A stretch of DNA of 64,000 nt, from assembly GCA_041694885.1 (NCBI GenBank), contig JBGFRX010000005.1:5291-69290 (forward strand), in the 5' to 3' direction. Both the position numbers and the translations under genes were made by a program. The stretch comes from Candidatus Micrarchaeota archaeon (lineage in GTDB: Archaea; Micrarchaeota; Micrarchaeia; Anstonellales; Bilamarchaeaceae). Below the pieces are notes generated by a model. The model saw only the letters and a list, made by a program, of their open reading frames with translations, was not told the DNA's origin and did not search any database. This document shows positions 14,413-41,842 of this stretch, in pieces. The number at the start of each line of letters is the position of its first letter. The first letter of the stretch is position 1.

Positions 14413-14469
14413 GTCAACTACCTCTGATTTGCAAAAGTTCAAGGTTTTCCCATTTCAGCGATTTCGCGA

Positions 14470-14572
14470 TTTAATTTCCGTCCTTTTCGCGTGAAGTCGC
14501 GAATAGCGAGGCCTGCATGATGGGACAAACAACCATCTGCTGACGTGAGGTGGAGGAATTATAAACTCTTAC
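14470..14572 (+). repeat. Copy A of a roughly 103-bp promoter-containing module. Its inverted partner is at 40531-40633, with about 7 mismatches.
   Basis: 'atttaatttccgtccttttcgcgtgaagtcgcgaatagcgaggcctgcatgatgggacaaacaaccatctgctgacgtgaggtggaggaattataaactctta' aligns to the reverse complement of 40531-40633. It ends in the TATA-like 'attataaa' 30-70 nt upstream of the DsrE-like gene. Confidence 0.85.
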
Positions 14573-14593: not shown

Positions 14594-14944
14594 TTGACAG
14601 CAAATTGGATTATGATTTGTTCAGGTGTTATGATGAAATTGACAGTAATAATAAGCTCGGGCGACTCGGAGAATGCATGGAACGCATTCCGTTTTGCGAA
14701 CCTGGCGCTTGGGAAAGGAGACGAGGTGAAGGTCTTCCTCCTAAACAGCGGGGTGGAGTGCCTCGAGAATAAAGGGAAATACGAAACAAAAACCCTATCG
14801 GAACAATTCGAGGAAAAGGGAGGTAAAATCCTCGCGTGCAGAACGTGCGCGAAAAGCAGGAATATGGGCAATGTCTGTGAAATCTCGAATATGGAAACGT
14901 TATATAATCTGATACGCGAAAGCGAGAGAACAGCTTATTTCTGA
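14594..14944 (+). CDS. DsrE/DsrF-like (YchN-fold) small sulfur-relay-type protein. The probable true start is MKLTVII at 14633.
   Basis: About 103-aa core 'MKLTVIISSGDSENAWNAFRFANLALGKGDEVKVFLLNSGV...ILACRTC' matches the DsrE/DsrF family architecture. Confidence 0.5.
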   Translation: MTANWIMICSGVMMKLTVIISSGDSENAWNAFRFANLALGKGDEVKVFLLNSGVECLENKGKYETKTLSEQFEEKGGKILACRTCAKSRNMGNVCEISNMETLYNLIRESERTAYF

Positions 14945-21482: not shown

Positions 21483-24400
21483 TATCAGAGCCTCGATTTC
21501 CGAAACTATCTCCTTTTCCTCATCGCTGAGCGCATCGCTCTTCTTCTTCCATTTCTCCAGTTCCGCTTTTGTGATGTAAACGAGGAGCGCATCGCCTTCC
21601 CTCACATCGCTGCCAAGAATTATCTCATCAACTGAAATGGCGACCTGCGTGCCCTTCTTTGCCTCCGCAAGCGATTCTTTCTCCTTCTGTATCGTTTTAA
21701 CTTCGCCCAAGACCCTTCCATCCAGGTTCATGAGGCGCACATGTGGCCTTAATTTTCCGGCAAGAACTTCCACCCCGAAAATAGCCGGCTTACTCACGCG
21801 GAAGAAACAATTGGGTAGCGCCCTTATGCGGCAGGGCCAGGACATCTTCTCAAACACCTGCTTTTTTTCCCTTTCCCTTTCCTCCGCCTTCCATTCCTCG
21901 TACCTGTCCAGAAGCTGATAGACAATATTGCTGTAGATTATCTGCGCTCCTCCTTCGTCCCCTGCTGTCTTTGCATCAGGAAGCACCTGCACATTGAACG
22001 CGAGCACAGCGCCTAAATATTTGTCCTGCGCAGCAACCGTCGCAGCGAGCAGCGCGTCTCCTTTGGTTACATTGCCAACATTCGCCGCCTTCACCGGTAC
22101 GTTCGCATCCCTGAGGAGCTTGACTATCGCCTCCACGCTGCCCAAGCTATCCGCCTTCACCACCACTCCCAAACCGGCGCTCTCGAAAATTATCCCTTTC
22201 ATGTGCGCCTCTATCTCCTTCCTGTCTTTTTCATAGTTCTTTGCGACAATGAGAGGGGAGCCGCTCACCGCATCCTCGAGTCCGGGAGCTGCGATTTTTA
22301 CTCCTGCAGCAGCCACGAGCCGCTCCGCCTTCCTGAACTTCTCCTTTGCGCCTCTTATGTTCGGCTCGAGCAGCGCGCGTATTTTGGTTTTCTTCACTCC
22401 TGCTCTGGAGAGGAACACAATTTCGTCGCCCTCCACGAGTACCCCGTCGTAAATTATGACGTCCACAGTTGGCCCGAGCCCTTTCTCCTCTTTGACCTCC
22501 ATCACGCTGCCTTTTGCAGGGCTTTCGGGATCAACGTGCAGCTCCTTTTCCAGAAATTTCTGGCTGAGCCCTGCTATAAGAAGAAGAAGCTCTGCAAGCC
22601 CCTCGCCCGTCTTCGCGCTCACAGGCACTATCCCGACTTGCTTCGTGAAATTCTTTACCCTGTCAAAACGTTCGGAATCGAAGCCGTATTCGGAAAGTTT
22701 CCCCATCAACCCGTATATCCTTTCATCAACATTGTTTTGCGTACTCTCTGACTGCTTTGCGAGCGATTCGAGGAACGACTCCGTTGCCTGCGATTTCCAT
22801 CTGTCAACCAGATCGACCTTGTTCGCGGCGATGATGAAGGGCGTTTTCGCGTTTTTCAGTATCCTTATGCTCTCTATGGTTTGGGGCTGGAATCCCTGTG
22901 CAATATCCACTACGACTATCGCCATGTCTGCTATGCTTCCCCCCCTCTCACGCAGATTCGTGAACGCCTCGTGGCCCGGCGTGTCTATGAAAAGTATGCC
23001 CGGAACCATGAGCTTTATTTTCATCCTTTCCGCTACTGGTTTGGAAACCGCCTCTATATTCTCGCGCGCCACATAGCTCGCGCCTATCATCTGGGTTATC
23101 CCACCTGCCTCCTTCCCCGCCACACCGGTGCCCCGAACTGCATCGAGAAGGCTGGTGTTGTGCGCGAAAATCCGGTCTGCTACGAAATTGTGGTGCTCCG
23201 GAACCGTGAAATCGTAGACGTAGTCTTTGGATTCGGCATGAACAATTTCCGAAATGCGCACTGCCTGCACGTCCGAGCCGGAGCAGAAACGCGAAATGTT
23301 TTGGAGGCGCGCACGAACGAGTGCCCGGCACTTTCCGGAGTTCGCGCAAAAGTCCGCACCCGTAGCCGTTAGCGAGAATTGCCCATTTTTCATTTTCACG
23401 AGCCCATCCGAATAGAACGACCGGAGTTGATTCACCGTCCAGACCCAGGGAAGCCCGCTCTCTGCCGCAGCTTCTTTTGAGGATAGCGGCCGGCATTTTA
23501 GGGATTTGAGCAGCCGGATTTTCTTTTTCAGAGCGTTGCGGTATTCGGCCGAGGACAAAAGGCGCGTGAGATTTTCCTTAAATGAAGACAGGTATGCCCT
23601 CGAAACAAACGGATATTCCTCGTACTTGCCCTGATAAGGTATTCCGACCTCCATTTTCGCAAGACCAGGCAGATTTCGGATTTCTCTGATGCTGGCGCCG
23701 CTTATGGGGCTAATGTCGCTGTTCCTGTTCGTGCGGGCCTTTTTTAGGAAACGCTCCAGTCTCGCCCCTTTCTTCAGGGACCTTATGGGAATCGCCCTGC
23801 GGAATTTTTCAATGTCCTCGATTCCGCTTATTCTTAGGCTGTAATATCCATTCTTGGAGTAATAAGCAGCCCTTATGCCGAACCTCAGGAGCGCCAGGGA
23901 AAGGTCCTCAACAAACAGTCTGCTCGCGCTCGTAATCTCGAGCGCGCCCTGGTTGCTCGCATAGCCGTCGGTGTCGAATACGCCGGCTATGAAATTCGCG
24001 AGCAGGGAGTCGTCACCTGTCTTCACAAGGTCCGGAATTCGGATGGTCCGGCTTTTTTGCCTTGCGGGAAAATCGAAAATCTCGTTGAGCATGCGGTTGA
24101 GCGTCCTGCCTCCCCTGTGGATGGCCGCTGTGACTGTCCGCTCGCGCCTGACCACGACCTGTACTCCGAACGCTTTCTTCATCGCGTCCGCATACGCAGA
24201 CAGTATCTCCGGGTCGTTCTTGCACAGCTTCGCGACGCCGCCCACGCCGTCGCCGAAAAGCAGCCCGAGCGCATACCCAAGTTCATCCCGCAATTGCGGC
24301 ACAGGGAGCCAGGGGCCCGTGTGCCCTGCCCTCCACTTGTGGGTGGAATTCTTCAATTCGGTCATTTTCCTCACTGAAGCACCACGGGTGCGCGGAAGCC

Positions 24401-25271
24401 AGTGTTGTTCACCAATAGGCATGGCTTCAGTTGTCCATGAGAACGGCGCTCCGTTCTGGGGGTACAAAGAACGATGCGTCGTTCTTTGGCATGGGGGAGC
24501 GCACCCTACGCTATCGGGATGTGGCTTCCGCCTAAAGCCATCAATATCGGAAGCCACGGGCTCCTTCAGCTTTGCTGAAGGGATTGCGGACGAAGTCCGC
24601 AGGATTAGCCCGTGGTGCTTCACAAACCCGCACCCGAGGACGCCTCCGGCTGTCCTTAGCTCGGCCATCTGGAATCTTCCGTTGCTCAAGCAGTCCCGGA
24701 ATCCTGCTGGAAAATCCGCTGGATTGGACAGATAGAGGCCGTGCATTCCGGAAGTGAAATCCTCATCATCAATCCTCGCGACGAACCCTTCCATCGCGGA
24801 CAGCCTTTCAAAGAACCGCTTTTCTGCACGGGCTCTCTGAGTTCGGTTTTTTGTGTACCTCGGAGTGAGCACGAACTCTCCTTCCTTCAGAAAACGGCCT
24901 TCCTTCTCGCTGATTCCGCCTGCTTCATTCACTACGAAGAATTTGTGCTCCGGGGTCGCCTTTATCGCGCTGCCGTCGGAGAGCATTACTGACAGGAGGC
25001 TCTGTGTCTGCCTTTTCCAGACGTGGGAAACTCCTGCCTCGACAATCTCGCATTCCTTTGAGAAAGAGTAGAGTTTTGCATTTTCATTTGAGATGTCTGT
25101 AACCCAGCCGTCACCGCACCACTCGCCTTTTTTGTCTGAAGTCAGCATCTCGTAGAGCTCGTCGGCCCTCATAATCCGGCCATCCGGCAACGGTATGAGA
25201 GTGTCTCCGCTGATGCACTTGCCGTGATCGACGTGCCCAAGCACTGCTATTATTGGAGATCTGATAAGCAT
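21468..25271 (-). CDS. infB: Translation initiation factor aIF5B (IF2 homologue), interrupted by a large intein at the P-loop
   Basis: Exteins read 'AVLGHVDHGK|...|TSLLDAVRGT' then G-domain motifs 'DTPGHEAF' and 'NKVD', domain II and the C-terminal domain. Total 1267 aa versus about 590 aa expected. Confidence 0.9.
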   Translation of the reverse strand: MLIRSPIIAVLGHVDHGKCISGDTLIPLPDGRIMRADELYEMLTSDKKGEWCGDGWVTDISNENAKLYSFSKECEIVEAGVSHVWKRQTQSLLSVMLSDGSAIKATPEHKFFVVNEAGGISEKEGRFLKEGEFVLTPRYTKNRTQRARAEKRFFERLSAMEGFVARIDDEDFTSGMHGLYLSNPADFPAGFRDCLSNGRFQMAELRTAGGVLGCGFVKHHGLILRTSSAIPSAKLKEPVASDIDGFRRKPHPDSVGCAPPCQRTTHRSLYPQNGAPFSWTTEAMPIGEQHWLPRTRGASVRKMTELKNSTHKWRAGHTGPWLPVPQLRDELGYALGLLFGDGVGGVAKLCKNDPEILSAYADAMKKAFGVQVVVRRERTVTAAIHRGGRTLNRMLNEIFDFPARQKSRTIRIPDLVKTGDDSLLANFIAGVFDTDGYASNQGALEITSASRLFVEDLSLALLRFGIRAAYYSKNGYYSLRISGIEDIEKFRRAIPIRSLKKGARLERFLKKARTNRNSDISPISGASIREIRNLPGLAKMEVGIPYQGKYEEYPFVSRAYLSSFKENLTRLLSSAEYRNALKKKIRLLKSLKCRPLSSKEAAAESGLPWVWTVNQLRSFYSDGLVKMKNGQFSLTATGADFCANSGKCRALVRARLQNISRFCSGSDVQAVRISEIVHAESKDYVYDFTVPEHHNFVADRIFAHNTSLLDAVRGTGVAGKEAGGITQMIGASYVARENIEAVSKPVAERMKIKLMVPGILFIDTPGHEAFTNLRERGGSIADMAIVVVDIAQGFQPQTIESIRILKNAKTPFIIAANKVDLVDRWKSQATESFLESLAKQSESTQNNVDERIYGLMGKLSEYGFDSERFDRVKNFTKQVGIVPVSAKTGEGLAELLLLIAGLSQKFLEKELHVDPESPAKGSVMEVKEEKGLGPTVDVIIYDGVLVEGDEIVFLSRAGVKKTKIRALLEPNIRGAKEKFRKAERLVAAAGVKIAAPGLEDAVSGSPLIVAKNYEKDRKEIEAHMKGIIFESAGLGVVVKADSLGSVEAIVKLLRDANVPVKAANVGNVTKGDALLAATVAAQDKYLGAVLAFNVQVLPDAKTAGDEGGAQIIYSNIVYQLLDRYEEWKAEEREREKKQVFEKMSWPCRIRALPNCFFRVSKPAIFGVEVLAGKLRPHVRLMNLDGRVLGEVKTIQKEKESLAEAKKGTQVAISVDEIILGSDVREGDALLVYITKAELEKWKKKSDALSDEEKEIVSEIEALISVVF
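23157..25217 (-). mobile_element. 687-aa intein with LAGLIDADG homing-endonuclease domain, inserted after GHVDHGK of aIF5B
   Basis: Starts 'CISGDTLI' and ends 'FAHN' before extein Thr. LAGLIDADG blocks 'LGLLFGDGVGG' and 'FIAGVFDTDGYAS'. Confidence 0.85.
24374..24621. other. Highly structured, compositionally aberrant in-frame insert inside the intein linker, bracketed by a perfect 14-bp long-range inverted repeat
   Basis: 'tgaagcaccacggg' (24374-24387) is the exact reverse complement of 'cccgtggtgcttca' (24608-24621). Internal hairpins: gaagcca...tggcttc, gaacgg-cgct-ccgttc, tggcttccg...cggaagcca, cttcagc-tttg-gctgaag, gcggac-gaa-gtccgc. The encoded peptide segment is P/H/R/W/T-rich low complexity. 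Confidence 0.5.
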
Positions 25272-26475: not shown

Positions 26476-27306
26476 ATGAATTCTGGAAAATTTATCTTCG
26501 CGATACTATCTTTCATCTTTCTCTCGGCATTTGTATTGGTTGCCGGCTGCGCGCAACAGCAGCCCGCGGGCGCGAACGAAAGCGCGCCCCTCAGGTTCAA
26601 AGACAGCGCGCTCGTGGACTACATACTTATCGTGGAAATACCCGATAGCGCAGCAAACGGAAGCAGGAAAGCGGTATACGATACGTCCATCGGGGCAATT
26701 GCTAGAGAGAACGGCATCTACAATGAAAAAAGGGCATACGGGCCGCTTGCAGTAGAAATGCAGAACGACAACGGCCTTCTTCCAGGATTCACCCGTGCGC
26801 TTGTCGGGATGAAGGAAGGCGAAAACAAGACGTTCACACTGAACCCGGAAGAGGGCTATGGCATTTACGATTCCAGCAAAGTATTCTCAATAAGCCGGTT
26901 CTATAACATGAGCAGGTACGAGGACATTCCGCTCGCGTATTTCGAGATGAGAAACCTTTCCAGTGCGATCGGCACAAACCTTTCGGGCAAGTTGGGCGTT
27001 GCGCAGGTCGTAAACTCCACGAACGAAACAGTTACGCTGAAATATTTCCCTGCAGAGAACACCACGTTCGTGTTCAACGGGCTTCCACAAAGAGTCGTTT
27101 TCTTTGACAACGACAGCATACTGATCGAGATAACCGTGCAGCAGGGAACGAAATACATAACTGAATCACCTTCAGGGGATAAGTTCAGCGTTATTGCAAC
27201 AGCGATGAACGAAACCGGCATAATGTTCGACGCGAACAACCCCCTCGCAGGCAAGGAGCTCACATTCACGGTGTTCGTGAGGAAAATAGGGAAAGCGCAG
27301 GAGTGA
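26476..27306 (+). CDS. Secreted or lipid-anchored FKBP-type peptidyl-prolyl cis-trans isomerase with C-terminal extension
   Basis: Signal/lipobox 'LVAGCAQQ'; FKBP core 'GLLPGFTRALVGMKEGENKTFTLNPEEGYG'. Confidence 0.55.
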   Translation: MNSGKFIFAILSFIFLSAFVLVAGCAQQQPAGANESAPLRFKDSALVDYILIVEIPDSAANGSRKAVYDTSIGAIARENGIYNEKRAYGPLAVEMQNDNGLLPGFTRALVGMKEGENKTFTLNPEEGYGIYDSSKVFSISRFYNMSRYEDIPLAYFEMRNLSSAIGTNLSGKLGVAQVVNSTNETVTLKYFPAENTTFVFNGLPQRVVFFDNDSILIEITVQQGTKYITESPSGDKFSVIATAMNETGIMFDANNPLAGKELTFTVFVRKIGKAQE

Positions 27307-30300
27307 GTGGTGGAAGAATGACGGACAAGATAAGGAAAAGGGACGGAAGTGTAGTTGCGTTCGACGCTGGCAAGATAAAAGAGGCAATATGGAAGGCAGT
27401 GCAGGCGGTCGGCGGAAAGGACATGGAGGAATCGGACAGGACCGCTGAATTCGCGGTTAAGCTCCTGAACGAGAAATTCGCCAAAGAAATACCTTCAGTA
27501 GAGGATATACAGGACATCGTGGAAAAGGCGCTCATAGAGCGCGGGCATGCGACCACTGCGAAGGCGTACATACTCTACAGGCACAAAAAAAGCGTTGAAC
27601 GGGAAGTTAAGGGCATAATGGGCGTGAAGGATGACCTCAAGCTCTCGCTCAATTCCATACAGGTCCTGGAGCGCCGCTACCTACTCAAGGACGATTCAGG
27701 AAAGATAATGGAAACACCTGGCGGGATGTTCAGACGGGTCGCGAAGTTCATCGCCTCAGGGGAAAAGGCGTTTGGAGGGGACGAAGAGACGGTGAAGGAC
27801 TTCGAGGAGGCGTTTTACGAGGCGATGATAAAGCTGGAATTCATACCCAATTCCCCGACACTGATGAACGCAGGAACAGGGCTCGGCCAGCTCTCAGCAT
27901 GCTTCGTTCTCGGCGTCACGGACGACTTGGACGACATATTCGAGACAGTGAAGAACACTGCATTGATACACAAGAGCGGTGGAGGCACCGGCTTTTCCTT
28001 CTCTTATCTGCGCCCCAAGGGCGACTTCGTGAAAAGCACTGCCGGCGTGGCGAGCGGACCAATTTCGTTCATGACCATCTTCGACGTGGCGACTAACGTG
28101 GTAAAGCAGGGTGGCAAGCGCAGAGGCGCGAACATGGGCGTGATGGAAATATGGCATCCTGACATCGAAGAGTTCATCACAGTGAAGCAGACGCCGGGCG
28201 TGCTCGAGAACTTCAACATCAGCGTGGGTGTGGACAACAGGTTCATGAAGGCGCTCGAAGAGGATAGCGAATATGACCTCATAAACCCAAGGACCGGCCA
28301 GCAGGTGAGAAAGGTGAAGGCAAAGGGCCTGTTCAACCACATCGCCTATTCCGCGTGGAAGTCAGCAGAGCCAGGCATTCTTTTCATGGACACTATAAAC
28401 AATGCCAATCCAACTCCAAAAGAAAGGATCGTTGCGACTAATCCTTGCATTTCAGGAGACACGCTTGTGTGCACGAACGAAGGGCTCGTAGAGGCGTCCA
28501 AGGTACACAATCCTCACCACGTAATCGGCTCCGACGGCAAATACCACCCTGTGCGCTGGGCTGGCCAGACCGGGGAAAAGGAGCTTTTCCTCGTGAAGAC
28601 GAATGCGGGCTACGAAGCCAAGGCAACTGCGGAGCACAAATTCCTCACTGAAGGCGGATGGAAAGAGGTGCGCGAACTAACTTCCGAAGACCGGCTTGTG
28701 CTCCAGAAACAAGGAAAATTCGGAGCAATGCGCATTGACAGGGAGATGGCGCTCGCGCTCGGCTGGCTTGTTAGCTGCAACCATATGTCCAAAGACGCAC
28801 AGGACGTGATATTTCATTTCGGGGAAGAGGAGAAGGCGGAGCTCCTCCCTGTGTTCAGGGAATATTTCGACCGCATAAACGGAGTGAAAGTGAAGCCGCA
28901 GAAAAGCAGGACAGGAACGCGGCTTAAATATTCGTCCAAAATAGCTGCGAAATTCCGTGAATTCGGGTTCATGCACCTCAAAGCGCGCGAGAAGGAAGTG
29001 CCTTCAGCTGTCTTTTCAATGAACGAGGAATCAGTGGGGAATTTCCTTTCCGCATTGTTCGGCGCAAGCGGCTCTGTGCAAAGCAACAGCGAAAAGGAAG
29101 TAAGCATACGCCTCTCATCCAGCTCCATCAAGCTGCTCAAGCAGGTGCAGGTGCTTCTCCTTCAGTTCGGCATCGTTTCCAGGGTGTACGAAAGAAGGCG
29201 GGGCGGGCATGCGAAAATCCTTCCTGATTCGAAAAGACAAAGCAAGGAGTATTCATGCAAGGCCCAGCACGAACTGATGATAAACAGGGCGAGCATGTTC
29301 CTGTTCATGAACAAGGTTGGTTTTGCGGTTTCATCCAAAAACGAAAAATTCGCGGAGCTTAAGCCCAAAAAGGCATATTCGGATGATATGGATAGTTCGG
29401 TTGCCTCTGTCACGAGCGCAGGATTCGCGCCTGTATACGACCTCACCGAGCCGCAAACGCATTCATTTTCCGCGAATGGCCTCATAGTGCATAATTGCGG
29501 CGAAGTCCCGATGCCCAATTATGAGTCATGCAACCTCGCGAGCATAAACCTCGCGAAATTCGTGGAAATCGACTGGAGCAGGAGCGACTGGAAAAGGAAG
29601 ATCAACTGGAAGCGCCTGCGCTACATAGTCCGGCTCGGCGTGCAGTTCCTCGACAACGTCATCGAGCTGAACAAATACCCGATTCCGAAAATAAAGGAGA
29701 AGACGCTCTACAACAGGCGCATAGGGCTCGGCGTGATGGGCTTCGCGAAGATGCTCTTTAAGATGGGGATAAAGTACGATTCCGACGAGGCGTTTAGGAT
29801 AGGGGAAGAAGTGATGAAATTCATAACCGAGGAGGCGAGAAAGATGAGCCATGAGCTCGGAAGGGCGCGCGGCTCCTTCCCCGGCTTCGCGGACTCCGTG
29901 TGGGCGAAGAAATACGATGGGATGCGCAATGCGACCGTGACCTCGATAGCTCCAACAGGGACCATTTCGATGATTGCGGACACTTCAAGCGGTATAGAGC
30001 CGGTGTTCTCGCTCGCGTACGTGAAGATAGTGATGGATGGCACCCGGCTCTATTATTCAGACGACACGTTCGAGCACGTGCTCAAGGTAAGGGGGCTGTA
30101 CTCGCCAGAGCTGATGCAAAAGGTAATAGAAAGCGGGAGCATCGCAGGGATGGAGGAAATCCCGAAGGAAGTGACGGAAATATTCCGGGTCGCGTACGAC
30201 GTGCGGCCAGAGGCGCACGTGCGCATGCAGGCCGCGTTCCAGAAATACACGGACCTGGCGGTGAGCAAGACCATAAACCTGCCTCCGGACGCCACAGTCG

Positions 30301-30470
30301 AGGACGTGCAGAGCGCGTACATGCTTGCATGGAGAACCGGGTGCAAGGGAATTACCGTTTACAGGGAAGGAAGCAGGGGCGAGGGCGTGCTCGCGAAGGT
30401 CAAGCCAGTTCCAAAGGCAGCGCCTGCTCCTGAAAATCCGAACCCTGTGCAGGAGAGGAACGGACAATAG
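27303..30470 (+). CDS. nrdJ: Adenosylcobalamin-dependent (class II) ribonucleotide reductase with N-terminal ATP cone, interrupted by an intein at the catalytic NPCGE motif
   Basis: ATP cone 'KIRKRDGSVVAFDAGKIKEAIWKA'. Exteins give 'ATNP|CGEVPMP' (NPCGE active site). C-terminal 'TINLPPDATVEDVQSAYMLAWRTGCKGITVYREGSR'. Confidence 0.85.
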   Translation: MSGGRMTDKIRKRDGSVVAFDAGKIKEAIWKAVQAVGGKDMEESDRTAEFAVKLLNEKFAKEIPSVEDIQDIVEKALIERGHATTAKAYILYRHKKSVEREVKGIMGVKDDLKLSLNSIQVLERRYLLKDDSGKIMETPGGMFRRVAKFIASGEKAFGGDEETVKDFEEAFYEAMIKLEFIPNSPTLMNAGTGLGQLSACFVLGVTDDLDDIFETVKNTALIHKSGGGTGFSFSYLRPKGDFVKSTAGVASGPISFMTIFDVATNVVKQGGKRRGANMGVMEIWHPDIEEFITVKQTPGVLENFNISVGVDNRFMKALEEDSEYDLINPRTGQQVRKVKAKGLFNHIAYSAWKSAEPGILFMDTINNANPTPKERIVATNPCISGDTLVCTNEGLVEASKVHNPHHVIGSDGKYHPVRWAGQTGEKELFLVKTNAGYEAKATAEHKFLTEGGWKEVRELTSEDRLVLQKQGKFGAMRIDREMALALGWLVSCNHMSKDAQDVIFHFGEEEKAELLPVFREYFDRINGVKVKPQKSRTGTRLKYSSKIAAKFREFGFMHLKAREKEVPSAVFSMNEESVGNFLSALFGASGSVQSNSEKEVSIRLSSSSIKLLKQVQVLLLQFGIVSRVYERRRGGHAKILPDSKRQSKEYSCKAQHELMINRASMFLFMNKVGFAVSSKNEKFAELKPKKAYSDDMDSSVASVTSAGFAPVYDLTEPQTHSFSANGLIVHNCGEVPMPNYESCNLASINLAKFVEIDWSRSDWKRKINWKRLRYIVRLGVQFLDNVIELNKYPIPKIKEKTLYNRRIGLGVMGFAKMLFKMGIKYDSDEAFRIGEEVMKFITEEARKMSHELGRARGSFPGFADSVWAKKYDGMRNATVTSIAPTGTISMIADTSSGIEPVFSLAYVKIVMDGTRLYYSDDTFEHVLKVRGLYSPELMQKVIESGSIAGMEEIPKEVTEIFRVAYDVRPEAHVRMQAAFQKYTDLAVSKTINLPPDATVEDVQSAYMLAWRTGCKGITVYREGSRGEGVLAKVKPVPKAAPAPENPNPVQERNGQ
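28446..29495 (+). mobile_element. 350-aa intein with degenerate LAGLIDADG blocks, inserted at the RNR catalytic Cys
   Basis: Starts 'CISGDTLV' and ends 'IVHN' followed by the +1 Cys of NPCGE. Blocks 'LALGWLVSCNH' and 'GNFLSALFGASGSV'. Confidence 0.8.
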
Positions 30471-33597: not shown

Positions 33598-34188
33598 GTG
33601 TTTATGTGTTGGGCGGCAAATAAATTAATAATTGTTCTATGCGAATGCCGGATGAGCAATATGGAAGTGCATGCATTCAAGGAGCAGCCAATCTGGCCGC
33701 CTTTTCCTGCGCGCCGCACCCATATCCCCATGAAGAAAGTACTTGATGTGAGGAACGCAAAAAATGCAAGGAATGCGAGGCCGCGTATAGTGGACCGCAC
33801 CGAGACGCTGGAACTCGTGCACTGCTTCGCATGCAACGGGCACATCAGAAAAAGGCATGGCGCAAAGCCCAAGACACGGGTGCTGTTCAGGATCTGGAAC
33901 AACGCCATTGAAAAGGTGAAGTACGTGCGCCCGAGATATTACTGCCCGAACTGCAAAGCAGACGTTTTGCCGGAAATCCGCGATGCCCTTCCAAACATGA
34001 AATTCGACTTCGAGATAATAGGGCTCATCCTTGCTTTGAATGCGGACCGTGGCATGGGGTGCAGGTGCATAAGCAAGGCATTTTCGTCCCTATTCGGCAT
34101 CGGCATCTCACCTGCAAGCGTGAGCAACATCCTCAAGAAGATGAAGGCATTTTCCAGCTGCCGCGGCTTAGAAAGGAAAAGAAAATAA
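33598..34188 (+). pseudogene. ISL3-family transposase remnant: N-terminal zinc-finger plus HTH only, with the DDE domain missing. The real coding part is probably about 33730-34188.
   Basis: 'HCFACNGH...(25 aa)...VRPRYYCPNCKADVLPE' matches the zf-ISL3 pattern C-x2-C...RRY-x-C-x2-C-x4-L/F-x-E, followed by the HTH 'GISPASVSNILKKM'. The ORF stops after about 150 aa, where a roughly 300-aa DDE domain would follow. Confidence 0.5.
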
Positions 34189-34290: not shown

Positions 34291-35127
34291 ATGGTTTTCT
34301 ATCCAGCCATTAGAGAGCTTTTCAACCCGGGCTTGCAGGAAGTGACAGGGCTTCTCATCCATCTTGTGGTCCTTTTCGCGAGCATAATGCTCTCCTTTTA
34401 CGGACTGCGCAACTTCGCGCGCTACACAGTTACACTATCCAAAAATACTCATCTTCTCGGAATCGCTTTTGCGCTCATAACTTTCATACCCATAGGGGAC
34501 ATGTTCGAGCACCTCGAGCTGTTTCCAGGCACAAGTTTCTGGCACCACATGCACATCTTCACCAATGTCGCGGCATTCTATTTCATCTACCGCTTCGTGC
34601 AGCTCATAGATGCGAAAGAGCGCGAAGATATGGGAAAAAGCGCAGCACTGCTCGTCGCCATTACAGTGTTCGGAATAGTTTTTTCGGAAAGCGAGGAAAT
34701 GTTCAAGGCAGGACTCTTTGGTACTCTCCCGTACCATTACGTCATAGGTACAACCTACATCGCCCTGTTTATCGCCATATTCTGGCTTTCATGGAAGTTC
34801 CTGGATCAGATAAGCAATCTCGGAAAAATGGAGAGCGCGTTTTCGCTGAAGAGCTTCGCGATTTCCATGATACCGATAATTTCAGCATGCCTGCTCGCAA
34901 CCGGCGCCACCTCGCTTACCGCGGAGTTCATAAGGGACATCATCCCCAGCATTAAGAGCCATCCGTTTGTTCTGCTCATGGTCGCGTCGGTGAACGTGTT
35001 CTACCTGTCGCTCGCCATGACCCTCGTCGGCTTCGGCTACATGGCGGAAAAAATACACGGCTTCTACGCGCCCATAGAAAAATTCGTGGCAAGGAAAAAG
35101 ACAGAGACCCGCTACTTCAAAAAATAA
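34291..35127 (+). CDS. 7-TM membrane protein, paralogue A of an unassigned family with a conserved F-E-H...F-W-H-x-M-H motif
   Basis: 'DMFEHLELFPGTSFWHHMHIF', 'FSLKSF', 'FYAPIEKF' align with 'ELFEHTNMPPAGHFWHYMHLA', 'FSLKTF', 'FYTPIARF' of the ORF at 39598-40506. Confidence 0.5.
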   Translation: MVFYPAIRELFNPGLQEVTGLLIHLVVLFASIMLSFYGLRNFARYTVTLSKNTHLLGIAFALITFIPIGDMFEHLELFPGTSFWHHMHIFTNVAAFYFIYRFVQLIDAKEREDMGKSAALLVAITVFGIVFSESEEMFKAGLFGTLPYHYVIGTTYIALFIAIFWLSWKFLDQISNLGKMESAFSLKSFAISMIPIISACLLATGATSLTAEFIRDIIPSIKSHPFVLLMVASVNVFYLSLAMTLVGFGYMAEKIHGFYAPIEKFVARKKTETRYFKK

Positions 35128-35136
35128 CAAAAGGGG

Positions 35137-36384
35137 CTATAATATGTTCCCTATCATTTCAAATGCCCGCTTTATTATCTCAGGTGGCGGAAGGAACGTG
35201 GTGCGGAAATACGTTCCATCAGTTTGCTTTCCAAACCCGGAGCCAGGAACAAGAACAACTCCTCCTTTGTCCGTTGCCTTCAGGGCAGCCCTTATGAAGT
35301 CCCAGTCGCGCTTTCCTTCCCATTTTCCGCTCTTTATCTTCATGAACGCGTAGAAAGCGCCGTTTGGCTCAGGATAGGAAAGAGGAAGCCCAGAGGTCGC
35401 TTTTTCCAGCGCCTTCTTCCTTTCGATGAGCGTTTTTTTCACGTCCACAAGATAAGGGTCAACATCCTTCACGAGCGTTGCCGCAACGCCTTCCTGGAAC
35501 TCCCAGTTCAGCGCAAGGCGCCTGTTGCATTCCTTCTGCACCGCCTCCTTTATCATCCCCCATTCGTCCTTTCCGCCTTTTCCCATGGAATGGAAAGCGA
35601 GCCAGCCCACCCTTGCACCAGGGTAGAAGTAAATCTTCGAGACCGAACTTCCATAGATGTATGGAATTTTCCCATCTGCGATTTTCCTGAAATCTACTGG
35701 CTCGCCGAACGTGAGCCGGTCATAAGCGCCGTCGTAGAAGACCGGCACTTCGTGCCTTGCGCACACTTCGACCGCAGCCCTGAGGTTGCCTTCCGAATAG
35801 ACCGAGCCAAGAGGGTTGTTAGGGTTTATTATGACCGCGAATTTCGCGCCCTGGATTTTCTTTTCCAAATCACCTATATCTATCTGCCCGTTCTCATCAT
35901 GCCTGTAAAAAGCGGAATTCGCGCCGTTTAGGTTCGCCTCGGTTATGTAAATCGAGTATGTGGGATTAGGAAGCACAGCCTTGTCCCCTGGGTTGACCAT
36001 CGTGGAAAAGAGGAACTTTATCCCTTCCGTGAGCCCGTGCATCACGAAAACGTCGTCAGGAGTACAATTTCCGCCCTCAATTTCCGCTGCCTTTTTCCTT
36101 AGCGATTCAGTGCCCTGCGAGGGCGGATAGCCCTTGAGTTTTTTCCCGAGCGCTGCTTTCACGTTTTCCGCGATCGCGTCAGTCAGCCCCATTTTCAGGT
36201 CGTAGTTGGATTTCGCAGGGTCGCCTATGTTTAGCCAGATCATCTGCCTTCCCTGCTTCTGGAGCTGCACCGCTTCGATCACTACATCGCGTATCGCGTA
36301 TTCCACAAATTCCATTCGTTTGGATGGCCCGAATGCCACATTATCGCTTTTTCGTCCAGTGTCCATAATACCCCCTCTGTTCAT
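35137..36384 (-). CDS. Class I/II PLP-dependent aminotransferase (aspartate/alanine aminotransferase-like)
   Basis: Aminotran_1_2 fold; 'NPNNPLGSVY' and 'SVSKIY' (PLP Lys) motifs. Confidence 0.8.
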   Translation of the reverse strand: MNRGGIMDTGRKSDNVAFGPSKRMEFVEYAIRDVVIEAVQLQKQGRQMIWLNIGDPAKSNYDLKMGLTDAIAENVKAALGKKLKGYPPSQGTESLRKKAAEIEGGNCTPDDVFVMHGLTEGIKFLFSTMVNPGDKAVLPNPTYSIYITEANLNGANSAFYRHDENGQIDIGDLEKKIQGAKFAVIINPNNPLGSVYSEGNLRAAVEVCARHEVPVFYDGAYDRLTFGEPVDFRKIADGKIPYIYGSSVSKIYFYPGARVGWLAFHSMGKGGKDEWGMIKEAVQKECNRRLALNWEFQEGVAATLVKDVDPYLVDVKKTLIERKKALEKATSGLPLSYPEPNGAFYAFMKIKSGKWEGKRDWDFIRAALKATDKGGVVLVPGSGFGKQTDGTYFRTTFLPPPEIIKRAFEMIGNIL

Positions 36385-36672: not shown

Positions 36673-38079
36673 CTAACGATGCTCCCTTGCATGGCTGTCA
36701 ATTATTTTTGCAACGTTGACAGGATGCATTGGGGGCCTGACCATAGCAACCCTTGCTCTTGTTTTCTCGCCAAAAGGTTCACTTGGAGTTATACATACTC
36801 CTTTTTCATCCACCAACGCTGCGGTCAGCGCATTGCTGTTTACGCCCTTTACATATTCGAGGTAGTGGTAAAATGGGATTTCAGGCTTGCCGAATGGATA
36901 TTCAAGAACTTTGCCATAGCGTTTTTGAAGCCTCTCGATTTCGGTTCCGAACTGCATGCTCCAGTTCGCGAACGTTTTGAAATTCGGCGCAAGTTCCTTC
37001 ATAATAGTTTCGTACTCCTCGTAGTACGGCAATGAAGCATACTGCGTGAGCGTGTTTTCTCCAAGGTACATTGCAAAGGCGGTTCCCAGTGCATCGTGCA
37101 ACGCGTCGTTCACCAGTTTTGCGGTTTTCAATGCGTCCGGTATGTATGGTGTGAAGAAGCCGCCGTGGAAACCAGTTCCCAGCGTTTTGTCTATTCCACT
37201 CATGAAAAGCAGGGGCACGCCGGTTTCCTCGGAGATTTTGAAAAAGTCGATCCTCTGTGCAGAAGGTATGTAATCCCTGTAAATGTCATCAATAATAAGG
37301 AGCACTGCATTTCCAGTTTCCAGCATGTGAAGCTGCAAGCCATCGGCAATCTGTCTGGCCGTTTTCGCCTTTAGTATAGTGCCGGTTGGATTATCTCCAG
37401 ATATAACAACAACAGCGCGCGTATGCTCATCCAGTTTGGAAAGCACTGATTTTACGTCAGGTGAGCCGTTGTCCTCCCCACCTCTTATTCTTTCAGCACG
37501 CTTCACCTCCACACCATACAGAATCAAAATGCCTGCCCATGGTGCATAGACGGGGTTCACACACACAACGTTGCTCTTCAGATTTGATACAAGAAGCCCG
37601 GTGAACTGCAATCCTTCGGTCACGCCATTGACGCCATAAATATTTTTTGGATCGAGACCATATTGTGCCGCAATCGCCCTGCGTAATCGCAGCATTCCCT
37701 GCGAGTTCGTATAAACTATACGAGCAACTTCGCCATTTATCTCCTTTCCATTCAAGACATCGTGAAGAACACTTGTTACTGAGGGTGCACCCTCTATCGA
37801 CTGGTCAATGTGCGTGTTTCCAATGTCGTGGCGCAGTACACCATGCTTTACGCCATCATTGATCCATTCAGTGCCACTGTCCGCGTGTGCCTGCCCTTTC
37901 TTCACTGAGTCGCTTCCGCGCAGCGTGCACTTCGCCGCTTTCTCGAACCTAGAGATATCCAGATTCAACGTGAGCACGCCCGCTTCGCCAAGCTTCTTCA
38001 CTTCTGCGAGCCGTTCCTTGGAACTAAGCTTCAAAAATTGTTCTTTGTTCATAGTTCGTTGCGCCAAATTCATAAACAA
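36673..38079 (-). CDS. Class I/II PLP-dependent aminotransferase paralogue with an N-terminal extension of about 70 aa
   Basis: 'ISGDNPTGTIL' and 'SGIDKTLGTGF' fold signatures; extra N-terminal helical region of unknown function. Confidence 0.6.
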   Translation of the reverse strand: MFMNLAQRTMNKEQFLKLSSKERLAEVKKLGEAGVLTLNLDISRFEKAAKCTLRGSDSVKKGQAHADSGTEWINDGVKHGVLRHDIGNTHIDQSIEGAPSVTSVLHDVLNGKEINGEVARIVYTNSQGMLRLRRAIAAQYGLDPKNIYGVNGVTEGLQFTGLLVSNLKSNVVCVNPVYAPWAGILILYGVEVKRAERIRGGEDNGSPDVKSVLSKLDEHTRAVVVISGDNPTGTILKAKTARQIADGLQLHMLETGNAVLLIIDDIYRDYIPSAQRIDFFKISEETGVPLLFMSGIDKTLGTGFHGGFFTPYIPDALKTAKLVNDALHDALGTAFAMYLGENTLTQYASLPYYEEYETIMKELAPNFKTFANWSMQFGTEIERLQKRYGKVLEYPFGKPEIPFYHYLEYVKGVNSNALTAALVDEKGVCITPSEPFGEKTRARVAMVRPPMHPVNVAKIIDSHAREHR

Positions 38080-38129: not shown

Positions 38130-39410
38130 CTATGGCTTCACCCTCTGCCTGTCCCTTGGGAACATCACCGCATCGCGTATGTTCCCGAGTTCACAGAGTG
38201 CCATGGTCATCCTGTCCAAGCCCATGCTCCAGCCAGCGTGCGGAGGAGCACCGTACTTGAATGCGTCTATGTACGACTTGAAGCCCGCGGGCTCCATTCC
38301 CTTTGCCGAAATTTGTTTTTCGAGCAAATCCGGAATGTGAATCCGCTGCGCTCCTGAAGCGACCTCCATCCCGCGATAAATCAAATCATAAGCCCTGCAC
38401 ATCTTAGGATTGTCTTCGTAAGGCATAGAGTAGAAAGCCCGAACAGCAGTAGGGTAATCCTTCACAATAACGACATCGCTCTTCGCGGTTTCGCAGATTT
38501 TCACCTCCTGCTCCCTGGAAAAATCCTCTCCCCACCTTATCCTTTCTCCGTCTGCATTAAGCGCTTTCACCAGATCGGAATAAGCGTATACAGCTGCCTT
38601 TTCCGGCACTTCGAGTTTCGCGTTCAGGGTTTCGAGTTCAGCCCTGTTCCTTTCATTCACGCTGTTCAGCATTTGCAGGAACACTTCTCCCAGGACAGCA
38701 ATCGCGTCTTCATCATCAGCAAAAGCCATCTCTATGTCCATCTGGTGTATTTCGTTTATGTGGTAGGGACCTTCGTGTTTCTCTGCCCTGAAAACAGGAG
38801 TGGTCATGAACACACGCTCCATTCCTCCAATTACTGCCAATTGCTTGTAGAACTGCGGGCTCTGCGCTAAAAACGCCGGTTTATCAAAATAATCGATTTT
38901 GAAGAGCTGCGCCCCCCCTTCGGTGGAAGAGCCGACTATGCACGCAGGATTTATCTCCTCGAAATCCAGCGAAAGGAGCGCCTCGCGGAACGCACTTTCC
39001 AGAGTTGCCCTTATGTCGAATATCGCCCTTGTTTTCTCCCTTCGCAGATCCAGTGAACGGTTGTCCAGCCGCACGTTCAGGTTTGGCTCTTTCTTTTGCA
39101 CAGGGTAAAAAGGGAGTGGGCTGTAAATTTTTCCAACGACCTTAATGCTCTCCGCTTCCAATTCCACTCCGTTTGGAGCCCTCGGCTCCTTCCTGACAGT
39201 TCCTTTCACCTGGATTGCGCTTTCCTTTTCTATTTTTTCTTCAGGTTTCGAGGAAAGTTTCACCTGTATCTTTCCGCTTCCGTCTCGCAGGGTGAGAAAT
39301 GTAAGCGTGCCCAATTCCCTTATATTGTGCACCCAACCCGCGAGAACTGCAGGTTTTCCGTCAAAGATTCCGGATTCGGAGAGCACAGATGCTATGCTCC
39401 GTTCCTTCAT
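38130..39410 (-). CDS. aspS: Aspartyl-tRNA synthetase, archaeal type. It is probably non-discriminating given the gatCAB genes 5 kb away.
   Basis: N-terminal OB fold 'VLAGWVHNIRELGTLTFLTLRDGSG'. Class II motifs 'FRAE', 'GAPPHAGWSMGLDR'. Confidence 0.9.
   Translation of the reverse strand: MKERSIASVLSESGIFDGKPAVLAGWVHNIRELGTLTFLTLRDGSGKIQVKLSSKPEEKIEKESAIQVKGTVRKEPRAPNGVELEAESIKVVGKIYSPLPFYPVQKKEPNLNVRLDNRSLDLRREKTRAIFDIRATLESAFREALLSLDFEEINPACIVGSSTEGGAQLFKIDYFDKPAFLAQSPQFYKQLAVIGGMERVFMTTPVFRAEKHEGPYHINEIHQMDIEMAFADDEDAIAVLGEVFLQMLNSVNERNRAELETLNAKLEVPEKAAVYAYSDLVKALNADGERIRWGEDFSREQEVKICETAKSDVVIVKDYPTAVRAFYSMPYEDNPKMCRAYDLIYRGMEVASGAQRIHIPDLLEKQISAKGMEPAGFKSYIDAFKYGAPPHAGWSMGLDRMTMALCELGNIRDAVMFPRDRQRVKP
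39333..39380. repeat. Copy 1 of a perfect 48-bp direct repeat. It lies inside aspS codons 14-29; its partner is at 39559-39606.
   Basis: 'atattgtgcacccaacccgcgagaactgcaggttttccgtcaaagatt' is identical at both positions. Confidence 0.9.
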
Positions 39411-39558
39411 GGAAGTGGAAGAAGCGAGCAGCTCGCGGCTGCGCGTCCGTTTTTGTGCAGAATCAGATCCTTTGAAAATGGTTTCACCTGTGCTGCTGTT
39501 ACAGTTCGGCGTATAGTTGGACGTAACCGCTTAAAAATCTACCGCGAAACTTTTTAAG

Positions 39559-39606
39559 ATATTGTGCACCCAACCCGCGAGAACTGCAGGTTTTCCGTCA
39601 AAGATT
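39559..39606. repeat. Copy 2 of the 48-bp direct repeat. It overlaps the last three codons and the stop of the 7-TM paralogue B gene.
   Basis: Identical 48-mer. In this copy the 'tca' within 'gtcaaagatt' is read on the minus strand as the TGA stop of the membrane-protein gene, which uses a different frame from aspS. Confidence 0.9.
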
Positions 39607-40506
39607 TTTCAAATTCATCCAACCTGAAAAGGAGCGTTCTGTGACTTTCCCTGAATGAGCTGATGAGGCCTTTTTCTGCCTTACGACCCTCGTACTCCTG
39701 TTGGTGCTGAGGAAGCGTGCTATAGGCGTGTAGAACGCCTCGGCACGCATGGTCGCGAACACGAAGAACATTATTGTAGTGGTAAGCACGACGTACAGCA
39801 TGTTCTGGAAGATGCGCGCCAGCGTGGTTATCTCGTTGTGCCCGAACAACACGAGCGCTGTTCCCATTATATCTATGTTTATGGTGAGCAGGAACAGTAT
39901 ACCGATGAGCGAGTAGAGCGCAGAAGTGAGTATGAACGTCTTCAGCGAGAACGTGTTCCTGGTGACTTCATTCATATTCGAGATGTTCTTCCATGTTTTG
40001 AGCAATATAACCAGTGTCAGGAGCGAAAGTACGAGGAACAGCAGCGCGTCAAAATTTACCTCTATTATCAATTCGATATGATACAGCGCATAGAGCGGAA
40101 CAAACATCGCAAGGAGCACGAGAACGGTTTCGCGCACCACATGCTCTGCGCGCTCGGGCGTTTTGCTCTCCCATGTGGAGGTGAAAAGATATACAAAATA
40201 AATCGCCGCGATTCCGGACGCGAGGTGCATGTAATGCCAGAAATGCCCTGCCGGAGGCATGTTGGTGTGCTCGAACAGCTCGAATATGCCTATGCTGCTT
40301 ATGAAAGCGAACACCATTGCGAGCCGCATCCAGCGCACGAATAGTTTGCTGTAATGCATTATCACGCTCCTCAGGCCCAAAATACCTGCAATTATCAGGA
40401 ATATTATGAACACGATGTGCATGTCGAACGCGCTTATTACGAATGAATCAGTATCCTCCAGATCCGGAAACAAGGGGATTATGCCCTGAGTCTTCCCGGT
40501 CGCCAT
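39598..40506 (-). CDS. 7-TM membrane protein, paralogue B of the F-E-H...F-W-H-x-M-H family
   Basis: See paralogue A. Its own promoter lies inside the 103-bp module (40531-40633), with TATA about 32-39 nt upstream of the ATG. Confidence 0.5.
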   Translation of the reverse strand: MATGKTQGIIPLFPDLEDTDSFVISAFDMHIVFIIFLIIAGILGLRSVIMHYSKLFVRWMRLAMVFAFISSIGIFELFEHTNMPPAGHFWHYMHLASGIAAIYFVYLFTSTWESKTPERAEHVVRETVLVLLAMFVPLYALYHIELIIEVNFDALLFLVLSLLTLVILLKTWKNISNMNEVTRNTFSLKTFILTSALYSLIGILFLLTINIDIMGTALVLFGHNEITTLARIFQNMLYVVLTTTIMFFVFATMRAEAFYTPIARFLSTNRSTRVVRQKKASSAHSGKVTERSFSGWMNLKNL

Positions 40507-40530
40507 TACAACACCGCAATATCGTCAATA

Positions 40531-40633
40531 TAAGAGTTTATAATTCTTCCACCTCACGTCAGCAGATGGTTGTTTGTCCCACCATGCAGGCCTCGCTATT
40601 CGCCACTTCACATGAAAAAGACGAAAATTAAAT
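40531..40633 (-). repeat. Copy B (inverted) of the roughly 103-bp promoter-containing module
   Basis: The reverse complement aligns to 14470-14572 with about 7 mismatches; the 56-nt core 'gcgaatagcgaggcctgcatg(a/g)tgggacaaacaaccatctgctgacgtgaggtgga' has a single mismatch. Confidence 0.85.
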
Positions 40634-40726
40634 GGATTTTTTACGTGCCGCGTCATTTATTAAAATTTTGCACGCATCTTATCATACATCGCTGAAACCA
40701 TGCGACTTAGTTAACAGGGTGGGAAA

Positions 40727-41842
40727 ATGAAAACAACTCTTACAGTAATAAAGGCGGACGTGGGCGGCTTCACTGCGCATTCGGACGTCCATCCGCGGCT
40801 TATCGAGAGCGCGCAGAAGTCCTTGGAGGTGGGAAAGAAGAAGGGTATAATACTGGACTATTACGTGACGAAGGTGGGCGACGATCTCCAGCTCATAATG
40901 ACGCACGACAAGGGCGTTGACTCGAAGGAAGTGCATGCGCTCGCGTGGGACGCGTTCATTGCAGCTACTGCGATTGCGAAGGAACTCAAGCTCTACGGTG
41001 CTGGCCAGGACCTTCTCGCAGATGCGTTCAGCGGGAACATAAAGGGCATGGGGCCCGGATGCGCTGAGCTCGAGTTCGAGGAAAGGAAGAGCGAACCTGT
41101 GATAGTATTCATGATGGATAAGACCGATCCAGGCGCGTTCAACCTGCCGGTTTTCAAAATGTTCGGGGACCCGTTCAACACAGCAGGGCTCACGATAGAC
41201 CCGAACATGGTTTCCGGCTTCGCGTTCGAGGTATGGGACATCTACGGGAACAAAAAAATTGTGCTTAACAGCCCGGAGGAACTCTACGCGCTCCTTGCAC
41301 TGATAGGCACGAAGAGCAAATACGTAATAAAAAGGGTGTTCCCGCGCACAGGAAACAAAGTTCCCCAGACCGAAGCAGTTGCGGCCATAAGCACGGACAA
41401 GCTCCACCTCATTGCCGGAGAATACGTAGGCAAGGACGACCCGGTGGCCATAGTGAGGTGCCAGTCAGGGCTCCCGTCGCAGGGAGAGGCGCTCGAGCCA
41501 TTCGCGTTCCCGCATTTGGTTGCCGGATGGATGAGGGGCTCGCACAACGGTCCCCTTATGCCAGTTGGGCAGAAGGATTCCATGACAACCAGGTTCGACG
41601 GGCCGACGAGAGTGGTGGGGCTGGGCTTTCAAATCGCCAACGGAAAATTGGTGGGGCCAGCAGACCTTTTGGGAGACATCGCGTTCGACAACGCGAGGAA
41701 AAAGGCGCTCCAGATTGCGGATTACATGAGAAGGCACGGTCCGTTCGAGCCGCACCGGCTCTCAGCAGAGGAGATGGAGTACACGAGCATGCCCAAAATA
41801 ATGAAGAATCTGGAGGGCAGGTTCGAGAAGATAGAGAAGTGA
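40727..41842 (+). CDS. fbp: Fructose-1,6-bisphosphate aldolase/phosphatase (class V FBPase)
   Basis: Hallmark N-terminus 'MKTTLTVIKADVGG'; about 370 aa, conserved throughout. Confidence 0.9.
   Translation: MKTTLTVIKADVGGFTAHSDVHPRLIESAQKSLEVGKKKGIILDYYVTKVGDDLQLIMTHDKGVDSKEVHALAWDAFIAATAIAKELKLYGAGQDLLADAFSGNIKGMGPGCAELEFEERKSEPVIVFMMDKTDPGAFNLPVFKMFGDPFNTAGLTIDPNMVSGFAFEVWDIYGNKKIVLNSPEELYALLALIGTKSKYVIKRVFPRTGNKVPQTEAVAAISTDKLHLIAGEYVGKDDPVAIVRCQSGLPSQGEALEPFAFPHLVAGWMRGSHNGPLMPVGQKDSMTTRFDGPTRVVGLGFQIANGKLVGPADLLGDIAFDNARKKALQIADYMRRHGPFEPHRLSAEEMEYTSMPKIMKNLEGRFEKIEK

Follow-up and report, generated by a model that had tools for sequence, protein, structure and literature searches.

Target-site duplications of transposons are usually 2-15 bp long and enclose an element that has terminal repeats or a transposase. 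Previous studies described the dusA islands as multi-kb, integrase-encoding elements with 21-bp semi-conserved att sites, beside which a remnant of the original 5' end persists (PMC4482086). In the staggered-break model of inversion (Ranz et al. 2007, PMC1885836), the duplicates are inverted with respect to each other and lie at opposite ends of the inverted segment. Passages of the literature on template switching and break repair in yeast and human describe copied tracts at the junctions of structural variants (PMC8421209, PMC11724301, PMC7702065).

Here we characterized a perfect 48-nt direct repeat at the 5' end of an archaeal aspartyl-tRNA synthetase gene (aspS), one copy of which lies inside the gene and the other immediately upstream of its promoter, next to a gene for a membrane protein (memB). 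The window, that is, the whole stretch of DNA that was analyzed, is 64 kb long and belongs to a metagenome-assembled genome of a Micrarchaeota (DPANN) archaeon. We conclude that the upstream copy is probably a copied patch marking a breakpoint at which the memB segment, about 1.1 kb long, was recently inverted in this lineage. The features on which the argument turns are as follows.

38130-39410, minus strand: aspS, archaeal-type aspartyl-tRNA synthetase of 426 aa (class II core, Pfam tRNA-synt_2, and OB-fold anticodon-binding domain)
39322-39369, minus strand: original 48-nt copy, from the third base of aspS codon 14 to the second base of codon 30, exact match
39370-39558, minus strand: 189-nt spacer, the native 5' region of aspS (aligned with L062, L063, L001, L002, L065 and L067; protein N-termini; in-frame translation)
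39559-39606, minus strand: derived 48-nt copy, where the memB 3' end meets the aspS promoter
39598-40506, minus strand: memB, multi-pass membrane protein of 302 aa, with about 6-7 transmembrane segments by hydropathy
40727-41842, plus strand: class V fructose bisphosphatase (FBPase; Pfam FBPase_3, E = 8e-178), conserved, divergent neighbour at the limit of the rearrangement

The 48-mer, ATATTGTGCACCCAACCCGCGAGAACTGCAGGTTTTCCGTCAAAGATT on the plus strand, occurs exactly twice in the 64-kb window with 0 mismatches, and no third copy was found there at up to 3 mismatches (chance expectation 0), so that the perfect direct repeat announced by an earlier sequence-only reading is real, while the further copies that it suggested looking for are not present in the window. 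The two copies are in direct orientation. That reading had the outer copy in the right place (39559-39606) and the inner one at 39333-39380; the inner copy in fact sits 11 nt to the left, at 39322-39369, and therefore the spacer is 189 nt long, not 178, and the start-to-start distance is 237 nt. Within aspS the inner copy encodes (G)IFDGKPAVLAGWVHN(I), beginning and ending inside codons 14 and 30 instead of covering codons 14-29 as first described. The outer copy supplies memB with its codons N301 and L302 and its TGA stop (39598-39606), and its remainder is non-coding; the stop and the reading frame different from that of aspS had been recognized correctly, but the sense codons number two, not three. 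Beyond the repeat edges identity falls to random at once (24/100 positions on the left, 21/100 on the right); the flanks are unrelated right up to the edges, and any microhomology at the switch points would be hidden within the repeat. No displaced fragment of the aspS 5' end precedes the outer copy, the flank there being the memB 3' end, with stop codons in the aspS frame directly upstream. No structure signal was seen in the 48-mer alone (folding z = -0.65) or with its flanks (z = +0.36), and the interval 39200-40800 had no Rfam match.

The closest relatives of the aspS product are all from Micrarchaeota metagenome-assembled genomes, with 74-81 % identity; a metagenome scan with the protein gave no match above 44 % identity, and no genome closer than about 80 % was found in the collections searched. 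The enzyme is probably of the non-discriminating type. The genes gatA and gatB lie downstream of aspS and are supported by Pfam. When the region between the two copies was compared with the relatives, it showed the following landmarks of the gene's own 5' region.

39546-39558 and 39530-39539: TATA-like boxes in the spacer
39480-39490: conserved leader motif CAGGTGAAACC in the spacer
39444-39446: start codon, now ACG, of a former aspS N-terminal extension
39408-39410: present aspS ATG, with codons 1-14 also lying within the spacer

In the relatives the MKER start is preceded, at about 100-115 nt, by an upstream box, (G/T)ATTAAAAAG(G)TTTC, after which comes a conserved AGGTGGAAC motif. The homologous box of the window, CTTAAAAAGTTTC (39546-39558), starts one base past the upstream 48-mer, and its conserved TTAAAAAGTTTC directly abuts that copy. 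Since the box begins right after the outer copy, the patch fills the gap between the memB 3' end and an aspS core promoter that is still intact. The palindrome GCGAGC-A-GCTCGC, which had been assigned to the promoter at -16 to -28, does exist, but it occupies 39424-39436, that is, -14 to -26 from the ATG, outside the promoter and in a stretch that the relatives translate as a 12-residue N-terminal extension.

The peptide of the aspS copy is kept in relatives, for example as TLDGKPVVLAGWVHN in L001, and therefore the copy in aspS is the ancestral one. At the DNA level the equivalent of the 48-mer in L001, the best-matching of 6 aligned relatives, is identical at only 35/46 positions, whereas the outer copy is identical to the window's own aspS; it was therefore made from the gene of this lineage, and recently. 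With 0 differences in 48 nt, the divergence between the copies would be a few per cent at most. None of the 7 related loci has a comparable duplication of the aspS 5' region, and on the sequences compared the outer copy is evidently both unique to the window and young.

Three layouts were found when the gene order around aspS was compared among relatives. FBPase and aspS are directly divergent, with memB absent from the site, in L062 (218 nt between the two genes), L063 (141 nt) and L067. A memB homologue lies beside aspS and is directed away from it in L064, L065 and L001: the order in L064 is aspS, a memB homologue 59 % identical to that of the window, and FBPase, the latter two being co-directional; the memB-like gene of L065 is 47 % identical and divergent from aspS; and in L001 only the N-terminal 48 memB codons precede the contig end (pairwise E = 1e-5), again divergent from aspS. 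The window alone among the compared relatives has memB co-directional with aspS. Indeed, blastn of L064 against the window gave collinear matches for aspS (10-511 to 38842-39343) and FBPase (1676-2108 to 40718-41149) and a reversed match for memB (825-1604 to 40488-39709). In a neighbour-joining tree of AspRS the window falls inside a clade with L065, L062, L066 and L001, and in a tree of the N-terminal part L064 joins the clade of the window, L065, L062, L066 and L001; the divergent orientation of memB is the commonest state within the window's AspRS clade. Since memB is co-directional with aspS only in the window, the most economical explanation is an inversion of memB in the lineage leading to the window, a polarity that is based on three relatives and a single-gene tree. 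The comparison of related loci that had been proposed along with the sequence-only reading thus did reveal polymorphism in the presence, absence and orientation of memB, but not a single relative with the repeat among the 7 loci.

The other end of the inverted gene also joins its neighbour through a sequence that has a second copy elsewhere in the window.

40531-40633, minus strand: 103-nt patch separating the FBPase promoter from the memB 5' end, 93 % identical to 14469-14571 (7 mismatches)
14469-14571, plus strand: partner copy of the 103-nt patch, intergenic, 26 kb away, upstream of a DsrE-family gene (14630-14944)

Only 24 nt separate the patch from the memB ATG, and the two copies have the same orientation relative to their downstream genes (memB and DsrE, respectively). 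The 3' end of the patch at 40531-40633 carries the TATA-like ATTATAAAC about 30-40 nt upstream of the memB ATG, and in L064 and L065 the native promoter of memB has ATATAAAAA at the matching position. On the far side of the patch, about 90 nt beside FBPase resemble the FBPase promoter of L062 (TTATTAA, CTTATC, ATACAT), a likeness judged by eye and without a statistic. The patch has no Rfam match and no folding signal, and it is not found upstream of the DsrE gene of L068 (protein 79 % identical), where the region is non-homologous and contains a run of Ns. A larger inversion between the two 103-nt arms (14.5-40.6 kb) was considered and rejected: aspS, AT2, memA, gatA, gatB and FBPase keep the order and orientation of the relatives, and memB alone is reversed. 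If both patches had arisen simultaneously, the probability of 0 differences in the 48-mer would be about 0.04-0.2, depending on constraint, so that a single origin appears only marginally compatible with identities of 93 % and 100 %, and the two patches may be of different ages.

Within memB, residues 3-271 (about 39694-40500) are homologous to P0122 (59 % identical), which was the sole full-length homologue among 5.8 billion proteins searched; Pfam, NCBIfam and PDB sequence searches gave no match. Residues 272-302 form a 31-residue tail without counterpart in P0122, and the DNA between the conserved part and the 48-nt patch accounts for most of it.

39607-39693, minus strand: 87-nt stretch between conserved memB and the 48-nt patch, encoding most of the non-homologous C-terminal tail

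No other copy of this stretch was found in the window or in the related loci that were fetched. A resemblance between the junction of tail and patch and the ribosome-binding and start region of FBPase was dropped as not significant (best p = 0.02 among 10 comparisons). The neighbourhood on the other side of aspS holds a distant paralogue of memB and two aminotransferase-like genes.

34291-35127: memA, distant memB paralogue, 25 % identical
35137-36384: AT2, aminotransferase-like, Pfam-checked
36673-38079: AT1, aminotransferase-like, Pfam-checked

There was no sign of a foreign origin of memB in base composition, its GC content being the same as that of the flanks, with no anomaly across 34-44 kb. 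When about 50 ORFs from across the 64-kb window were scanned with Pfam, only housekeeping genes and two inteins came up, with no integrase, recombinase or complete transposase; the one transposase-like ORF (196 aa, 33598-34188), which has a weak similarity to the N-terminal part of IS66 transposases, is truncated and 5 kb away. Terminal inverted repeats are absent, with no inverted-repeat pair flanking 39600-40530. In addition, a collection of viral contigs gave no match to the core of the 103-nt patch or to either half of the 48-mer, and memB had no match in collections of plasmids and phages.

From these observations we presume the following course of events. In the ancestral layout memB would have stood between aspS and FBPase, directed away from aspS, as it still is in L064, L065 and L001. 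On the aspS side, 48 nt copied from the genome's own aspS would then have linked the 3' end of the flipped memB with the upstream edge of the aspS core promoter; on the FBPase side, the memB 5' end would have been joined via the 103-nt stretch that is also found 26 kb away and that now presumably provides memB with its TATA-like box. The route may have been template switching during replication or break repair; alternatively, a 3' end at the break might have primed on nearby DNA, a short tract would have been copied, and ligation would have followed. We infer that the 48-nt patch came from the same event as the inversion, and a direct 48-nt tract at one inversion junction together with a second tract at the other is what a template switch, or a primed broken 3' end, would be expected to leave. 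Whether one replicative event with several successive template switches (MMBIR-like) flipped memB, laid down both the 48-nt and the 103-nt patch and cost memB its own promoter is a more doubtful matter, and we put it forward tentatively. The sequence-only reading had offered, as its second option, a junction formed when the memB gene was placed here, and this option was essentially right: the outer copy lies exactly between memB and the native aspS promoter, and the orientation of memB is specific to the lineage. We refine it to an inversion junction with a copied patch.

The patch gave no sign of a function (no structure signal, no Rfam match, no conservation), and its effects appear incidental: memB takes its stop codon from it, and it stands in place of the sequence that used to precede the aspS TATA box directly. 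If the two 48-mer copies recombined, the aspS promoter and start codon would be lost, presumably with lethal effect, which may be why the duplication persists only as a fixed scar.

The same repeat could also have been produced in two steps, by a tandem duplication of 237 bp (unit 39322-39558) and a later inversion or insertion of memB that broke the upstream unit and left its first 48 nt. Repeat, spacer and repeat are indeed the start of a 1.2-copy tandem duplication with a period of 237, and such a course would account for the direct orientation and for the sharp boundary at 39558/39559 without any short copied tract. However, it requires two independent recent events at one spot, the rest of the second unit has left no trace (right flank 21/100 identical), and a tandem duplication of the region occurs in 0/7 relatives; we therefore regard the two-step course as unlikely. 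A mis-join in a mixed-strain metagenome contig, which would make the second copy or the orientation of memB an artefact, is quite improbable. The source is metagenome-assembled and its proteins are known from a single 71-kb contig, and a graph artefact would yield just such perfect identity of a short repeat; but two novel junctions (spacer to outer copy, outer copy to memB tail) would be needed around a repeat shorter than a read, no inverted repeats beside memB could blur its orientation, and the window has no Ns. Moreover, the region is biologically coherent, with an intact memB ORF that has its stop and a TATA-like box and with an intact aspS promoter. To our knowledge, 48 nt matches neither k nor k-1 of the usual settings of metagenome assemblers.

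It is very improbable that the upstream copy was kept by selection, for instance through gene conversion, as a cis element serving as memB terminator or 3' end or in the tuning of aspS. Its identity is perfect though it is mostly non-coding, it lies immediately upstream of the aspS TATA box, where a TFB-recognition element would be, and it gives memB its stop codon. On the other hand, there is neither a structure signal (z = -0.65 and +0.36) nor an Rfam match, the copies are direct and so cannot pair with each other, and the feature is absent in 7/7 related loci and thus is not conserved. The explanation preferred in the sequence-only reading, an att-like site-specific integration that rebuilt the aspS 5' end, would make the 48-mer the attL and attR of an integrative element that replaced the 5' end and has mostly been lost since. 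This is so improbable that we count it as largely refuted already, although several features of the locus recall such an event: 48 bp is a typical length of an att core, the repeat lies within the 5' end of an essential housekeeping gene, memB is polymorphic among relatives in presence, absence and orientation, and dusA islands do replace the 5' end of their target (PMC4482086). Against it, no more than 189 nt separate the copies, and these make up the native promoter and 5' end, which have homologous counterparts in relatives; the outer copy is preceded by no aspS 5' remnant; the 64 kb encode no integrase or recombinase among about 50 ORFs; the viral contigs gave no match to either half of the 48-mer, and the plasmid and phage collections none to memB; the GC content equals that of the flanks; and the relatives that carry memB lack the repeat.

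Read as an inversion with a copied patch, the locus adds one more case to a known kind of rearrangement scar and as such is of modest interest, a piece of ordinary genome micro-evolution read from one assembled contig. It offers a clean, datable case of small-scale change of gene order in a reduced archaeal genome: a single gene flanked by two essential ones was turned round, its two new junctions apparently received copied DNA, and aspS, memB and FBPase all retained a usable promoter, start and stop. Should the single multi-switch event be true, the locus would preserve the natural trace that replication repair with several switches left in a DPANN archaeon, a repair that incidentally gave memB a new TATA box and stop codon; DNA repair in DPANN archaea is, as far as we know, essentially unstudied. 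A wider functional implication would follow only if reads or sister strains showed the region to be still polymorphic. Annotators should not take every perfect repeat within the 5' end of a housekeeping gene for an att site.

Compared with the described systems, the locus resembles the dusA islands in that part of the 5' coding region of a housekeeping gene recurs upstream of that gene as a direct repeat, but it has no multi-kb element, no integrase and no remnant 5' end, and its inner 5' end is native. Since the defining features of the dusA type were searched for and are absent, the locus is most probably not a 5'-end-replacing island. It shares with target-site duplications a direct repeat made by an event of DNA insertion, but the repeat is 48 bp long, flanks a native promoter and comes without terminal inverted repeats, so that it falls outside that class. 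As in staggered-break inversions, the breakpoints carry duplicated sequence instead of clean joins; unlike in those, both 48-mer copies are found on a single side of memB and in direct orientation, which sets the locus apart from that model too. The closest likeness in kind is to breakpoint-associated templated insertions, for here a copied tract stands exactly at the junction of a structural rearrangement and is nearby sequence of the same genome (aspS, 189 nt away, 100 %). As in MMBIR/FoSTeS or synthesis-dependent end joining, a short nearby tract sits precisely at the junction, and a second tract, perhaps copied as well, stands at the other junction; unlike the yeast and human cases, this one is from a DPANN archaeon and is read from one assembled contig, and its two patches differ in identity (100 % versus 93 %).

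When characterizing the 5' end of aspS, the aspartyl-tRNA synthetase (AspRS) gene, we found that AspRS of the relatives starts 12 codons farther upstream, with an extension of the form M-x-x-G-E-K-L-A-S-S-S-S that is followed by MKER. The window codon aligned with this start, at 39444-39446 on the minus strand, is ACG instead of ATG, and therefore the annotated start of the window gene (ATG, 39408-39410) corresponds to an internal Met. The codons after the ACG (RSRELLASSTS) are still recognisable as the AspRS N-terminal extension, which in the window appears from the alignment to have been lost, or to be initiated at a non-canonical codon.

Farther upstream, the motif AGGTG(G/A)AAC(C/T)AT was conserved at window positions 39480-39490 and at the equivalent sites in the related Micrarchaeota loci L001, L062, L064, L065 and L067. 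In several Micrarchaeota the motif has the TATA box of aspS 30-70 nt on its 5' side and the ancestral start codon about 40 nt on its 3' side. The distance to the start codon is too great for the motif to be the ribosome-binding site of that start; it may instead represent a leader element conserved in the aspS mRNA.

Downstream of aspS, an extra gene, AT1, was located before the conserved aminotransferase gene AT2:
36673-38079, minus strand, AT1, class I/II aminotransferase-like, 468 aa, between aspS and AT2
In all six relatives with sequence at that place, aspS directly adjoins AT2 and AT1 is not present. Judged from gene order, AT1 is a second lineage-specific change beside aspS.

Two multi-pass membrane proteins, distant paralogues with 25 % identity, share the motif H-F-W-H-(Y/H)-M-H:
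39598-40506, memB
34291-35127, memA
Neither had a match in Pfam, NCBIfam or PDB. Among 5.8 billion proteins, only one full-length memB homologue was found apart from the window's own protein, and all the memB-like genes found adjoin aspS. A short way upstream of memB, and likewise of a DsrE-family gene, we observed one copy of an inverted repeat:
14469-14571 and 40531-40633, 103-nt inverted repeat, copies 26 kb apart, 93 % identity between copies
Both copies have the same orientation relative to their genes and carry a TATA-like ATTATAAAC at the end, and the pair looks like a duplicated promoter region. The repeat had neither an Rfam match nor a folding signal, and it was not found upstream of the DsrE gene of L068, the one relative compared.

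Inteins with a LAGLIDADG homing-endonuclease domain were also observed in the window, one in each of two genes:
21468-25271, IF-2/aIF5B-like GTPase (translation initiation factor)
27303-30470, ribonucleotide reductase large subunit

A further ORF was located between gatC and memA:
33598-34188, plus strand, 196-aa ORF
It is missing from the related loci. Its product contains CxxC...CxxC motifs and matches NF033517, the NCBIfam model for IS66-family transposases, over the N-terminal third of that model (E = 2e-9), a hit that falls far short of the cut-off set for the family. The ORF may be the remnant of a truncated insertion sequence.
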